NCBI GenBank assembly: GCA_963724765.1
Contig: CAVRVY010000003.1
Coordinates: forward strand, 416,001 to 480,000
DNA: 64,000 bases
Direction: 5' to 3'
Origin: an uncultured delta proteobacterium
Lineage (GTDB): Bacteria > Desulfobacterota > Binatia > Binatales > Binataceae
How positions within the stretch are numbered: position 1 is the first letter of the stretch; every line of letters starts with the position of its first letter. Both the position numbers and the translations under genes were made by a program. Positions 2,626-10,825 of the stretch are shown here, one piece after another. The notes below the pieces were generated by a model. That model worked only from the letters and a program-made list of their open reading frames with translations. It did not search any database and had not been told where the DNA came from.

Positions 2626-3267
2626 ATGCAGAACCAGTTCGGCATTATTCAGATGATCCAGCAGGGTTACTATGCCACGTACCCGCTGATCGTCATCTCG
2701 ATCGTTTGCCTGGCGGTCATTTTCGAGCGCCTGTGGGCGTTGCGCGGAATCGGCTCCCGTGCCACCAAGACCGCCGACGCGCTGGTCGGCCCGCTGCGCC
2801 AGGGTAAATTCAACGAGGCCCTGCAGCGCACCGAAACCGGCCATACCGCGGCTGACCGCGTCTTCCATACGCTCATCTCGGGCGCCAAGGATCTCGACCG
2901 CGCGCGGCTGGAAGAACTCGACGAGGAGCGGCGCTTTGCCGAGCTGGTCGAGCTCAAGCGCTACATCTGGGTGCTCGCGACTTCGGGCGCCTCGGCCCCG
3001 TTCATCGGGCTGTTCGGCACCGTGGTCGGCATCCTGGTCGCGTTCCAGTCAATGGCGGTGATGGGCACCGGCGGCTTCTCGGTGGTGGCGGCCGGCATCT
3101 CGGAGGCGCTGATTTCAACCGCGTTGGGATTGGCGGTCGCGATCATCGCGGTCATTTTCTACAACTACTTCTCAGTCAAGATCGACAACATCAACGCCGC
3201 GATCCACATCAACGCCGCCCGCCTCATCGACGCTGCGCTGCAAGGGAGACAGGCCGTTGGCGGTTAG
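2626..3267 (+). CDS. exbB: MotA/TolQ/ExbB proton-channel protein
   Basis: Three TM segments with APFIGLFGTVVGI and GISEALISTALGL signatures. Confidence 0.9.
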   Translation: MQNQFGIIQMIQQGYYATYPLIVISIVCLAVIFERLWALRGIGSRATKTADALVGPLRQGKFNEALQRTETGHTAADRVFHTLISGAKDLDRARLEELDEERRFAELVELKRYIWVLATSGASAPFIGLFGTVVGILVAFQSMAVMGTGGFSVVAAGISEALISTALGLAVAIIAVIFYNYFSVKIDNINAAIHINAARLIDAALQGRQAVGG

Positions 3268-3712
3268 CGGACCCAAAAGCAGCGGCGAGATGTTCTGGCA
3301 GATAAACATCACGCCGCTGACCGACATCTTCCTGGTCCTGCTCATCATCTTCATGGTAACCACCTCGGTCACCATCGAGGCCGCCTCCCACGTCGACCTT
3401 CCGATGGCCGAGAACACTTCGCCCGAAAACAAGGGCGTTATCGTCACCTATACCGCCCAGCACGAGCTGTTCGTCAATTCCAAGGACGTGACCGAGCGCG
3501 ACCTCGAGTCGGCGCTGACCGACGCGCTGACCCGGGTCGATTCCAAGGTGGTGATTTTCCAGGGCGACGAGAAAGTCCTGCTGGGTGACATGATCCGGAT
3601 CCTGCAAATCGCCAAGTTGGCCGGCGCCCAGCAGATAGCGATCGCGGCCAAGCACGTCTCGCCGGGACAGTTCCAGCGCCTGCAAACCGGGCCGGGCGCG
3701 ACCGGCGGTTGA
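3257..3712 (+). CDS. exbD: ExbD/TolR family protein 1
   Basis: INITPLTDIFLVLLIIFMV with the conserved Asp. Overlaps the exbB stop. Confidence 0.9.
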   Translation: MAVSGPKSSGEMFWQINITPLTDIFLVLLIIFMVTTSVTIEAASHVDLPMAENTSPENKGVIVTYTAQHELFVNSKDVTERDLESALTDALTRVDSKVVIFQGDEKVLLGDMIRILQIAKLAGAQQIAIAAKHVSPGQFQRLQTGPGATGG

Positions 3713-3753
3713 CCCCGGCAAACGAGGCCGGAGCAAGAGGTTAGAACCAGTTC

Positions 3754-4248
3754 ATGGCGATAAGCCCTAATCAAAGCGGCGGTGTTTTCGCCGACATCAA
3801 CATCACGCCGCTGACCGATATCTTTCTGGTCCTGCTCATCATCTTTATGGTTGCAACCGCGATCACCATCGAGTCCGCCGCCCACGTCGACTTGCCCAAA
3901 GTTCAGTCACAGGCGACCACCGACAAACCCAAGGGCGTGGCGGTGATGTACACCGCGGACCATCGCATCTTCGTCAACCAGGGTGAGGTGAATGAGCAAA
4001 CGCTGCCGGCGGCGCTCCACGACGCTATCGCCAAGGATCCCGACAAGCTGGTGGTGTTCCAGGGAGACCCGGCGGTGATCTTGGCCGACATGGTCCGCAT
4101 CCTCGACATCGCCAAAACGGCGGGCGCCCAGCAAATCGCGATCGCGGTGGCCAAGCTGCCGGGCGGCGGTGGCGGCGGCGAGACGGGGGAGCCGTCCCTC
4201 CCCAGCGGACCGGTGGTGCCGCCGGAACCCGCTACCGGAGGACCCTGA
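3754..4248 (+). CDS. exbD: ExbD/TolR family protein 2
   Basis: Same INITPLTDIFLVLLIIFMV TM motif plus a Gly/Pro C-terminal tail. Confidence 0.9.
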   Translation: MAISPNQSGGVFADINITPLTDIFLVLLIIFMVATAITIESAAHVDLPKVQSQATTDKPKGVAVMYTADHRIFVNQGEVNEQTLPAALHDAIAKDPDKLVVFQGDPAVILADMVRILDIAKTAGAQQIAIAVAKLPGGGGGGETGEPSLPSGPVVPPEPATGGP

Positions 4249-4367
4249 CTTTAGTTGTACCGTCACCGAGAGCACAATATTAAAGGGCGCCCTCAGGCGC
4301 ATAACTGGAGCATGGGCGCCGCCTTTCGGGGGATCAGGGCCGGGGCCGTAACAGCAAAGGGCATCGC

Positions 4368-5582
4368 GTGACCGTCGCGGAAGAAATCGGCCTGCTTGCG
4401 GTCTCGGTAGTCGTTGTAGCGATCGGGCTGTTCTGGATCGCCACGCGCGCGCATCTGGATGAGGAAGATCCGGAAAAGGAAAAGCCCGGCTTCAAACATG
4501 GCCTGCGCCAGGGTCTGCGCTTCCTGCTTGGCCCGTTCCCACTTTCCATTGGTCTGCACGTCGTGGTCCTGCTCTTCCTGCTCTTCGCCGTGCACATGGA
4601 GACCGGCCAGAACTTCATTCCGATAAGCCTCCAGGCCGGTGGCGGCGGCGGCCAGACCAAACCCGGCGAAGACACCAACCTGCCCGAGATGCAGATGCCT
4701 GAGCTGCAGGCGCTGCCGATGGAGAAGCCCAAGCAGATCGACGCTTACGCGCGTGAGGCCGTCGTTACCGCTAACAACTACGTGCGCTCGGCGAACAGTG
4801 GAATCGGAATCGGCCGCGGCGGCGGCATAGGCTCGGGCTACGGCCAGGGCATCGGCGGCGGGTTCGGCGGCTTCATCAGCGGCCTGCGGCGCACCGGTCT
4901 CGACGTCGTGATCGTCATCGACGGGACGGGCTCGATGCGCCTGGTGATCGACGACGTAAAGAACAAGATGCGCCAGTTGATGCTCGCGATCCATGGGCTG
5001 GTGCCGACCGCGCGCGTGGGGATCATCGTCTTCGGCGGACGCGGCGAGCAGGTGCAAATGCTGCCGCTTACCACTTCGCCCGGCGCGGTGGTCCAGTTCC
5101 TGGGCGGCATCCAGGCTCGCAATGGCGGCGAATGGCAGGAAGACACGCTGGGCGCGGTCCGCATGGCGGTCGACAACATGGGATGGCGCTCGTACGCCAA
5201 GAAAGTGATCGTGCTGGTCGGCGACACGCCGCCGTTCAAGGAGGATTTCGATCCGGTCCTCCAATTCATCCGCCAGTTCCACGCTGAGAACGGAACCTTC
5301 AACACGGTCGACCTGACCGTCGAGGAGCACGAGCGCTTCATCAAACAGTGGCAGAGCTTCAGCGGGCCAGTGCCGGTGAGCGCCTCCTCCCTGCCGGAGT
5401 TCTACCTCGAAACCCAGGCGGCTTATCAGGCGATGGCGCGGGCGGGCGGCGGAACATGGCGCAGTCTGACCAAGGACGAGCACATCAACCAGCAGGTGTT
5501 GATCCTGGCATTCGGCGAGCAGTGGCGCTCCGAGGTCGCCGCGTTCGGCCGAGGCATCAGATCCACCAACGCCGACCCGTAG
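4368..5582 (+). CDS. Membrane-anchored vWA-domain protein with TonB-like N-terminal helix and linker
   Basis: Two hydrophobic segments, the second LSIGLHVVVLLFLL (SxxxH), then a Pro/Gly linker and a vWA domain with DVVIVIDGTGSM and LVGD. Confidence 0.75.
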   Translation: MTVAEEIGLLAVSVVVVAIGLFWIATRAHLDEEDPEKEKPGFKHGLRQGLRFLLGPFPLSIGLHVVVLLFLLFAVHMETGQNFIPISLQAGGGGGQTKPGEDTNLPEMQMPELQALPMEKPKQIDAYAREAVVTANNYVRSANSGIGIGRGGGIGSGYGQGIGGGFGGFISGLRRTGLDVVIVIDGTGSMRLVIDDVKNKMRQLMLAIHGLVPTARVGIIVFGGRGEQVQMLPLTTSPGAVVQFLGGIQARNGGEWQEDTLGAVRMAVDNMGWRSYAKKVIVLVGDTPPFKEDFDPVLQFIRQFHAENGTFNTVDLTVEEHERFIKQWQSFSGPVPVSASSLPEFYLETQAAYQAMARAGGGTWRSLTKDEHINQQVLILAFGEQWRSEVAAFGRGIRSTNADP

Positions 5583-6000
5583 GGTTCGTCACGCGAACTC
5601 GCTCCTTCACTCATACCTCGGCGGGCGGCGCAGGTCGCACAGCGCGCTGCCAAAACGGTGCGCAAAGCGATGATACCGGCGAACTCCGAGGTCGCGATAC
5701 AAATGCGCGCGCGGGACCGCGCGCCTCACCGGCGCTAACTGGGCAGGCCGGGAAACGTCGCCTTCGATAGTCCTTTCTTTCATATGACGCGCATCATATT
5801 AATTATTGATGCTACAATATGCAAAATCCATTCCTTTTGTCGAAGCGGCCAAATAATTATAAGTGCGCCACCACTACTACGTTCTTGACTAAGCTTTTGG
5901 CGGCTTTGAATGATATCGCGCAGAGTATATTTGTGATACAAACCAATCGGCGTTAAACTGCGTTTTCGATCAACCTTGTACTTTAAAGAGAGGAGATTGC

Positions 6001-6531
6001 ATGCGAAAGTTCTCTATTGCACTGTTCGCGGTCGCGGCCCTGGCCGTGACACTGTCGGCGGCGCCCAGCGCGCGCGCACAAGATAAAGCGCCGACAAAGA
6101 GCACCACCAAGATCGGCTATTTGAGCTGTCACGTCGCCAGCGGCTGGGGATTCATCTTCGGATCGTCGCGTAAGCTGCAATGCGTCTACACTCCGGCGGC
6201 AAAGGGCAAGAAAATCGAGGACTACAGCGGTTCGATCAGCAAGTTCGGAGCCGACATCGGCTACCTGCAATCTGGCGTAATCCTATGGACGGTGCTGGCG
6301 CCGGCGGTAAAGATCTCGAGCCCAGCCGGTTTGCTCGCTGGCCACTACGGCGGAGCGACCGCTAGCGCGACTCTCGGACTCGGCGTCGGCGGCAACCTGC
6401 TGGTCGGCGGAATGGATGGATCGATTTCGCTGCAGCCGCTCAGCATCGAGGGCACCACGGGCCTTAACGTCGCAGCGGGCGTGGCGATGCTGGATCTCAA
6501 GTTCGAGTCTGTATCAGGCGTCAAGCAATAG
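6001..6531 (+). CDS. Secreted DUF992-family protein
   Basis: Signal peptide, GYLSC, GFIFGSSRKLQC, GHYGGATASA and ISLQPLSIEG...GLNVAAG. AGAGGAG RBS. Confidence 0.85.
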   Translation: MRKFSIALFAVAALAVTLSAAPSARAQDKAPTKSTTKIGYLSCHVASGWGFIFGSSRKLQCVYTPAAKGKKIEDYSGSISKFGADIGYLQSGVILWTVLAPAVKISSPAGLLAGHYGGATASATLGLGVGGNLLVGGMDGSISLQPLSIEGTTGLNVAAGVAMLDLKFESVSGVKQ

Positions 6532-9955: not shown

Positions 9956-10825
9956 CTACTCGGGGAAGATCGCCTTGACCACTTCGTCGATCGCGCGCTT
10001 GCTGTCGGCCTCGTCGGTGAGCGACCAGGTCACGGCGACGGTCGCGGCGCGGCGCGGCGCGATTCCCTGGCGGATAAGCTCGCCGGCGTAGATCAGGAGC
10101 CGGGTCGAGACGCCTTCTTCGAGGCCCGAGGCCTTGAGGTTGCGCACCTTCTCGCCCAGCACCGCGAGCTGCATCGCCATGTCGCGGTCGACACCCGCCT
10201 CGTGCTCGATGATCTCGACTTCCTTGTCGGCCGGCGGATAGTTGAACTCGATAGTGACGAAGCGCTGGCGCGTGGAGTGCTTGAGATTTTTCTGGATGCT
10301 CTGGTAGCCGGGATTGTACGAGATCACCAGCAGGAAGCCGACGTGCGCCTCCAGCGTCTCGCCGCGCTTTTCGACCGGCAGGATGCGGCGATGGTCGGAG
10401 AGCGGATGGATCAGCACGGTGGTGTCCTTGCGCGCTTCGACGATCTCGTCGAGGTAGCAGAGCGCGCCGCGCCGCACCGCCTGGGTCAGCGGCCCGTCGA
10501 TCCACACCGTCTCGTCGGCCTGGATAAGGTAGCGGCCGACCAGGTCGCTGCCGGTCAGATCCTCGTGGCAGGCGACGGTGATGAGTTCGGTGGGACCATC
10601 GGGAAGACCCGCGAGGCGATGGGCCATGTGCTCGACGAAGCGGGTCTTGCCGCAGCCGGTGGGTCCCTTGAGCAATACCGGCAGACGCGCTTTGTAAGCG
10701 GCCTCGAAAATTTCGACCTCGTCACCGATCGGGAGGTAATAGGGGGCGTTATGCGGGTCGAGATGGCGGACTTCGGGCCCTTCGGCCTGCATCCTGGTAT
10801 CGAACTTTTTCAACTCAATCGACAT
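9956..10825 (-). CDS. CbbQ/NirQ/NorQ-type AAA+ ATPase
   Basis: Walker [31 protein letters not shown] and STRQRF. Confidence 0.9.

Follow-up and report, generated by a model that had tools for sequence, protein, structure and literature searches.

A 64,000-nucleotide stretch of DNA from a soil bacterium of the Binataceae (C3:416001-480000 of the 5.4-Mb genome G000; hereafter the window) contains, at positions 2626-5582, four same-strand genes, identified as open reading frames with Pfam matches, that encode an ExbB/TolQ-like motor subunit, two ExbD/TolR-like paralogues, and a 404-residue membrane protein bearing a von Willebrand factor A domain (vWA domain). The results presented here make it probable that the four genes specify a third motor of the ExbBD/TolQR type, driven by the proton motive force, together with its own transducer; that is, that this bacterium probably carries, in addition to Ton and Tol, a third proton-driven membrane motor with a TonB-like arm that ends in a vWA domain.

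Gene linkage and relation to Ton, Tol, and the published class

The genome contains three genes of the MotA/ExbB family. One heads a complete TolQ-TolR-TolA-TolB-Pal-CpoB locus at C3:1.19-1.20 Mb, and a Ton locus elsewhere in the genome comprises a TonB-dependent receptor, ExbB, ExbD, and TonB, in that order; because Tol-Pal and Ton each have a separate locus, the window operon is a third motor. The operon proteins gave no Pfam match to the TonB C-terminal domain (PF03544/PF13103) at E up to 0.1, and neither this domain nor a TonB-dependent receptor was found within the 64-kb window, the nearest being at C3:765869 and C3:851931. These results agree with an earlier note on this DNA (the original prediction), which had seen no TonB C-terminal domain, TonB-dependent receptor, or tolB/pal nearby. 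We conclude that the operon is neither the Ton system nor the Tol system of the organism. In comparisons with NCBIfam models, the motor subunits are nearest to TolQ and TolR, with all scores far under the equivalog cut-offs (for the ExbB-like subunit, 111.7 bits for TolQ against a cut-off of 221 and 81.8 bits for ExbB against a cut-off of 206.2). The system is thus like TolA-TolQ-TolR in helix motif, in motor type, and in its nearest scores, but unlike Tol-Pal in having no tolB, pal, or cpoB and in scoring below the equivalog cut-offs. It resembles TonB-ExbB-ExbD in its long linker, in an inner-membrane Ser-x3-His helix that follows a basic/Phe-Pro stretch, and in sharing an operon with the motor, but differs in having no TonB C-terminal domain, no nearby receptor, and two ExbD paralogues.

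The vWA gene is linked to motor genes in three sets of loci. Among 24 Binataceae loci, two of which are cut at the gene, 21 of the remaining 22 have exbB-exbD-exbD directly upstream of the vWA gene, and the linkage holds even at 50-60% vWA protein identity. A metagenome scan used a distant clade with vWA proteins 26-30% identical and named members in the Gammaproteobacteria (alignment A3); in this clade a same-strand exbB lies 843-1522 nt upstream of the vWA gene in 42 of the 43 loci with enough upstream DNA, and two intervening exbD genes were confirmed by Pfam in both loci checked (L043 and L091). Seven of 121 sampled genomes of the phylum (G000 included) have a vWA match at E <= 1e-20, and in all five examined of the six others the motor adjoins the vWA gene: the order is exbB-exbD-vWA, with one exbD, in three genomes from within the class, and vWA-exbB-exbD-exbD in two genomes of another family in the phylum. 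The conserved linkage to exbB/exbD genes on which the original prediction depended is therefore found in each set, and motor-vWA linkage spans three gene arrangements. Linkage that survives gene rearrangement is the strongest evidence for a presumptive coupling of the motor to the vWA protein.

The motor subunits carry the expected residues. The ExbB-like protein has the transmembrane helix 2 and helix 3 Thr residues and the transmembrane helix 1 Ser; all 16 aligned sequences share the transmembrane Asp23 of the first ExbD paralogue; and the two ExbD proteins carry an identical 19-residue helix, INITPLTDIFLVLLIIFMV, Asp included, as the original prediction had noticed. To judge from the alignments, both ExbD proteins of the window retain the predicted proton-carrying Asp and ExbB retains the Thr residues, so that the presumptive key residues of the motor are kept. 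The window system differs in this respect from the gammaproteobacterial clade, in which the second ExbD (L043, L091, L045, L058) has Asn in place of the proton-carrying Asp and in which the motor would therefore have one protonatable Asp per dimer.

The window system belongs, as its Binataceae member, to the predicted class of "vWA force transducers", described computationally in Mol Biol Evol 2025 (PMC12204202). As set out in the main text of that paper, members of the class have an SHLS helix, then a linker that is disordered and holds a beta-strand motor box, and lastly a vWA domain at the C-terminus; an AlphaFold3 model docks the His on the motor; a co-occurring TPR gene is frequent in the PVC group; and the function is stated to be unknown, with surface adhesion or gliding suggested as a role. 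The Ser and His of the helix, the C-terminal vWA domain, and the motor operon all match here; the window protein differs in adding an N-terminal helix and long Gly-rich segments, and the window operon differs in having no TPR gene beside it, the homologue being unlinked. No other paper on the class was found in the literature from 2023 onward, and the main text of PMC12204202 contains no mention of Binataceae ("Binat") or of the DUF1302, DUF1329, BNR, or RND families. The original prediction had presented the module as distinct from Ton, Tol, and Agl-Glt: its separateness from the organism's Ton and Tol systems stands, whereas its novelty does not, since PMC12204202 describes the same architecture and operon and the earlier inference therefore re-derives a published prediction. 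We conclude that the reading as a motor-coupled transducer names the correct kind of system, although it had been published before.

Ser-His helix, linker, and vWA head of the transducer

The vWA protein carries every element that had been read in it at the outset, that is, an S-x3-H helix, a Pro/Gln spacer (6 Pro and 6 Gln among the 43 residues after the Ser-His helix), a Gly-rich segment, and the strings LSIGLHVVVLLFLL, GIGIGRGGGIGSGYGQGIGGG, DGTGS, and LVGD. In 15 relatives at 45-66% identity, F52, G55, P56, S60, and H64 are invariant, and the invariance of S60 and H64 extends through a wide alignment of 59 homologues at 24-66% identity (Table 1). The third position of the helix motif, L71, is Leu in 36 of the 59 sequences, and the fourth is V75, where TonB has the last Ser; an E. 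coli cryo-EM preprint, in the part that deals with this contact, reports that the Ser and His contact ExbB/TolQ and that the Leu and Ser of SHLS are less conserved. Residues 81-89 are a candidate motor box, by analogy to the TonB D-box: position 86 is V/I/L in 50 of 52 non-gap sequences, position 88 is L/I/F/V/M in 51 of 52, and position 84 is also a conserved hydrophobic.

The vWA domain has a variant metal-ion-dependent adhesion site (MIDAS), in which D185-x-T187-x-S189 and D286 are kept and the usual Thr loop reads GG(D/E)xxE. Conservation over the 59 sequences is 59 for D185, 58 for T187, 56 for S189, 58 for E258, and 48 for D286. The metal-dependent MIDAS grip, the periplasmic target, and the pulling action put forward in the original prediction are putative. 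In an AlphaFold2 model of the protein, with a mean predicted local distance difference test score (pLDDT) of 81.5, residues 166-400 score above 90 and adopt a vWA fold, and residues 85-105 and 142-162 are disordered, the Gly-rich part scoring below 50 over residues 142-162. A Foldseek search of the PDB with this model returned only generic vWA domains, among them Rpn10, integrin I-domains, and BatB at E ~1e-8, and no specific relative.

The protein has 662 homologues, of which the named ones are Candidatus Binataceae. A search of cluster representatives returned 2294 proteins at E <= 0.001 and 581 clusters at E <= 1e-10; among the matches listed, 96 representatives have at least 330 residues, and 78 of these combine S-x3-H in a hydrophobic helix with a later D-x-[ST]-x-[ST] motif, with two further representatives falling marginally below the hydrophobicity threshold. 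Named members of the class occur in Binatia, Gamma- and Alphaproteobacteria, and Planctomycetota. A profile search with the 46-sequence alignment A2 gave nearly exclusively Binatia-type matches.

The vWA head is most likely periplasmic, on the basis of loop charge, N-terminal domain fusions, and the orientation of TonB and TolA, which is the same. The inter-helix loop carries six Lys/Arg residues; the stretch ahead of helix 1 has none, and the 30 residues that follow helix 2 have one. Among 30 long homologues scanned (P0183-P0269), 19 have an FHA/YscD-like domain N-terminal to the Ser-His helix, and one Binatia-type homologue (P0109) has a zf-HC2 anti-sigma domain ahead of it; because these domains are cytoplasmic and precede the Ser-His helix, the vWA domain would be periplasmic, as the original prediction had supposed. 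Of four tests named beforehand as able to refute the prediction, three (those on topology, on SxxxH, and on linkage) gave results that speak for a motor-coupled transducer. We conclude that the analysis establishes the architecture of the system, its conservation, and its gene linkage.

The N-terminal fusions hint at cytoplasmic regulation or signalling in the variants that carry them, and raise the alternative that the vWA protein serves mainly in trans-envelope signalling or sensing, with ligand or motor strain at the head being reported to the cytoplasm in the manner of anti-sigma factors in TonB-dependent signalling. The alternative is favoured by P0109, a close relative in which the zf-HC2 anti-sigma-type N-terminus takes the place of helix 1, and by the phospho-signalling modules of the 19 longer homologues; however, the cytoplasmic part of the window protein is a loop of ~30 residues with no domain, and the compared loci show no conserved neighbour of the operon that encodes a sigma factor, a kinase, or a phosphatase. 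We consider this alternative unlikely.

Agl-Glt of Myxococcus comprises one ExbB-like and two ExbD-like subunits (AglRQS), GltG/J, and a vWA protein, CglB. The window operon resembles AglRQS in its layout of one ExbB-like and two ExbD-like genes, but differs from Agl-Glt in that its vWA domain is fused to a TonB-like anchor, CglB being an outer-membrane lipoprotein. That the module powers surface adhesion or gliding in the manner of Agl-Glt with CglB, as the main text of PMC12204202 suggests, agrees with this layout and with the report that vWA domains act as adhesins in Myxococcus (PMC9946355). Nevertheless, no Glt-like gene was found within ~5 kb of the window operon, in a search limited to this neighbourhood and not extended to the whole genome, and the vWA head cannot reach the cell surface because the inner-membrane tether has ~90 residues; a role of this kind is therefore very improbable. 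Least credible of all is that an ordinary Bat-like membrane vWA protein lies next to a spare ExbBD motor with no functional coupling: Foldseek ranks 9 and 10 are BatB and an aerotolerance-related protein, and there is a weak NCBIfam match to BatB, but that match scores 13.8 bits against a cut-off of 350, and an invariant Ser-His helix and linkage through three arrangements are unlikely for chance neighbours.

Coordinates and neighbouring genes

The compact operon of exbB, two exbD genes, and a fourth gene that the original prediction had described is present as such, with Pfam support for all four genes (Table 1). It had not mentioned that the vWA protein has an extra hydrophobic helix, formed by residues 7-25.

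Table 1. Genes of the window operon and segments of its vWA protein (positions in the window)
Feature	Position	Strand	Evidence
exbB/tolQ-like motor subunit, 213 residues	2626..3267	+	Pfam MotA_ExbB 1.5e-28
exbD/tolR-like paralogue 1, 151 residues	3257..3712	+	Pfam ExbD 1.3e-22; 11-nt overlap with exbB end
exbD/tolR-like paralogue 2, 164 residues, Gly/Pro-rich tail	3754..4248	+	Pfam ExbD 4.6e-24
Putative vWA-headed TonB/TolA-like transducer, 404 residues, GTG start	4368..5582	+	Pfam VWA_2 1.7e-10 / VWA 7e-07
Extra N-terminal hydrophobic helix, residues 7-25	4386..4442	+	Hydrophobic in all aligned Binatia forms without zf-HC2 N-terminus; helix 3-30 in AlphaFold2
TonB-like membrane helix, Ser60-x3-His64, residues 53-76	4524..4595	+	S60 and H64 in 59/59
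Candidate motor box QNFIPISLQ, residues 81-89	4608..4634	+	Alternating hydrophobics conserved
Conserved PEMxMPE box in linker, residues 103-113	4674..4706	+	P106 Pro in 48/59, P111 in 50/59
Gly-rich segment, residues 144-169	4797..4874	+	Gly at every second residue, invariant in 15/15 Binatia-type sequences
vWA domain with variant MIDAS, residues 176-400	4893..5567	+	AlphaFold2 pLDDT >90 mostly; Foldseek

The helix-coding parts of the two exbD genes (window 3302-3358 and 3796-3852) are identical at 52 of 57 bases, and the proteins are ~58-60% identical overall; the identity of the helix DNA suggests gene conversion or very strong constraint. Contigs 90-95% identical to the window and covering parts of all four genes were found in two soil metatranscriptome runs; these come from relatives, and DNA carry-over is possible. 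Contigs of this kind have joints that jump from ~3197-3281 to 3776, as would fit either an assembly that collapsed over the repeat or relatives that possess one exbD.

Within ~5 kb of the operon are genes for short-chain dehydrogenases/reductases, a phosphatase, a DUF992 protein, an amino-acid permease, an aldolase, and a CbbQ protein. Directly behind the operon (window 5583-6531) comes the DUF992 gene (4.7e-45), separated from it by 420 nt of AT-richer DNA in which promoter-like sites occur. A DUF992 gene lies behind the operon in 13 of the 24 Binataceae loci, one of them ~5.8 kb away, and because these are only the closest relatives we do not count it as part of the system. A CbbQ/NirQ/NorQ-type AAA+ gene lies on the minus strand at window 9956-10825 (AAA_5 7.6e-31, CbbQ_C 5.2e-28); it has no adjoining vWA partner of the CbbO/NorD kind, and its neighbours are a beta-eliminating lyase and, from translation only, a putative cysteinyl-tRNA synthetase. 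The possibility that its product serves the vWA domain as a MoxR-type partner was dropped, CbbQ being cytoplasmic and the vWA head presumably periplasmic.

Candidate partners and proposed mechanism

The gammaproteobacterial clade has the gene order [MMPL]-[DUF1329]-BNR-DUF1302-exbB-exbD-exbD-vWA-TPR (~750 residues)-DUF1329. Searches of these loci with phmmer show that 59 of 64 have a TPR gene after the vWA gene, 23 of 36 have DUF1302 before exbB, and 35 of 42 have DUF1329 downstream; of the five loci scored as lacking the TPR gene, at least one (L059) has a TPR match outside the chosen start window. Four of the 5 class/phylum genomes also have a TPR gene next to the system, with a product of 843-859 residues, and a search with the TPR proteins of these closer relatives identified an unlinked homologue in the present genome (C2:122613-125048, 811 residues, E 2.6e-37); phmmer with the gammaproteobacterial TPR proteins gave no match in this genome. 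In its locus (L116, C2:119657-125048), histidine-kinase, KaiC-like ATPase, and response-regulator genes come immediately before the homologue.

This genome also encodes a vWA paralogue of 412 residues (C4:113804-115042), 49% identical and with the same Ser-His helix, which has no adjoining motor and lies ~2 kb from a BNR-MMPL-DUF1302-DUF1329 run. In this locus (L108, C4:104432-115042), the paralogue is upstream of a gene for a 219-residue protein with no Pfam match, followed by an opposite-strand Kelch gene and then the run. Three DUF1302 matches and 22 DUF1329 open frames (36 matches) are present in the genome; DUF1329 is LolA-like, and the 22 frames together with the BNR-MMPL clusters, of which at least three more, some with DUF1302, are found (C4:408-417 kb, C2:426-432 kb, and C1:629-635 kb), amount to an unusual expansion. 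The gene context of the gammaproteobacterial clade and of the paralogue suggests an outer-membrane target.

In the sections that describe them (10.1101/072470, section 51; 10.1101/2020.07.04.188060), DUF1302, DUF1329, BNR, and an RND/MMPL exporter make up a known co-fitness module, for which pseudomonads show fitness phenotypes on fatty esters. The module as described there has four genes, without mention in those sections of a motor, a vWA protein, or a TPR protein; the gammaproteobacterial motor, vWA, and TPR genes lie between genes of the module, and no gene of the module stands beside the window operon. Tentatively, the motor, vWA protein, and TPR protein might be the missing energy source of this module, in TonB-independent proton-driven transport, with the one motor of the window serving two vWA transducers. 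One ExbBD serves several TonBs, which provides an analogy for such sharing. If true, hydrophobic compounds or envelope lipids would be moved across the periplasm and outer membrane by that route.

For the motor-coupled transducer, stoichiometry, docking, and force transmission would follow the precedent of Ton and Tol, and the partner is likewise inferred. By analogy to the solved Ton and Tol motors, a ring of the ExbB-like subunit would enclose a pair of ExbD1 and ExbD2, both with the proton-carrying Asp. The transducer would be anchored in the inner membrane by its TonB/TolA-like helix, with Ser60 and His64 docking at the ExbB ring's rim in the way known for their TonB and TolA counterparts; the periplasmic domains of ExbD would capture a short beta-prone stretch that comes next in the chain; the Gly/Pro/Gln-rich linker of ~90 residues would extend into the periplasm; and the partner acted on by the motor would be bound by the vWA head. 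The most likely partners would be the large TPR protein encoded on C2 and an outer-membrane DUF1302 barrel with its DUF1329 lipoprotein module.

Several observations weigh against this proposal. The loci within each set are related, so that the linkage counts overstate independent support, and a tree of 16 ExbB sequences has long branches and 9 of 13 inner forks open, so that the vWA-linked motors are not established as a single lineage. The AlphaFold2 model has no strand at the candidate motor box, with pLDDT below 50 from residue 85. The extra N-terminal helix is without counterpart in TonB and presupposes a putative N-terminus-out topology. As compared to the Ser-His network described in the E. 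coli preprint, the transmembrane helix 1 Trp and helix 3 Pro of ExbB are Leu and Ile here, with the helix 1 Ser kept. With respect to the partner, no TPR, DUF1302, or DUF1329 gene adjoins the window operon, and none of the 24 Binataceae loci has a DUF1302, DUF1329, BNR, MMPL, or TPR gene at a distance of 6 kb or less from the vWA gene; since these include a motor-less locus, L020, with no DUF1302 or DUF1329 within that distance, the adjacency of paralogue and module is a single case in the lineage. Finally, the family has no experimentally studied member.

In Gram-negative cells, the two textbook energy routes to the outer membrane are Ton and Tol, and a third class of transducer, with a head of another type, implies a different kind of target and another process. 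The class is widespread, to judge from the number of clusters reached from this one query. The gene-neighbourhood link makes the target hypothesis testable in culturable Gammaproteobacteria, because the module already has fitness phenotypes.

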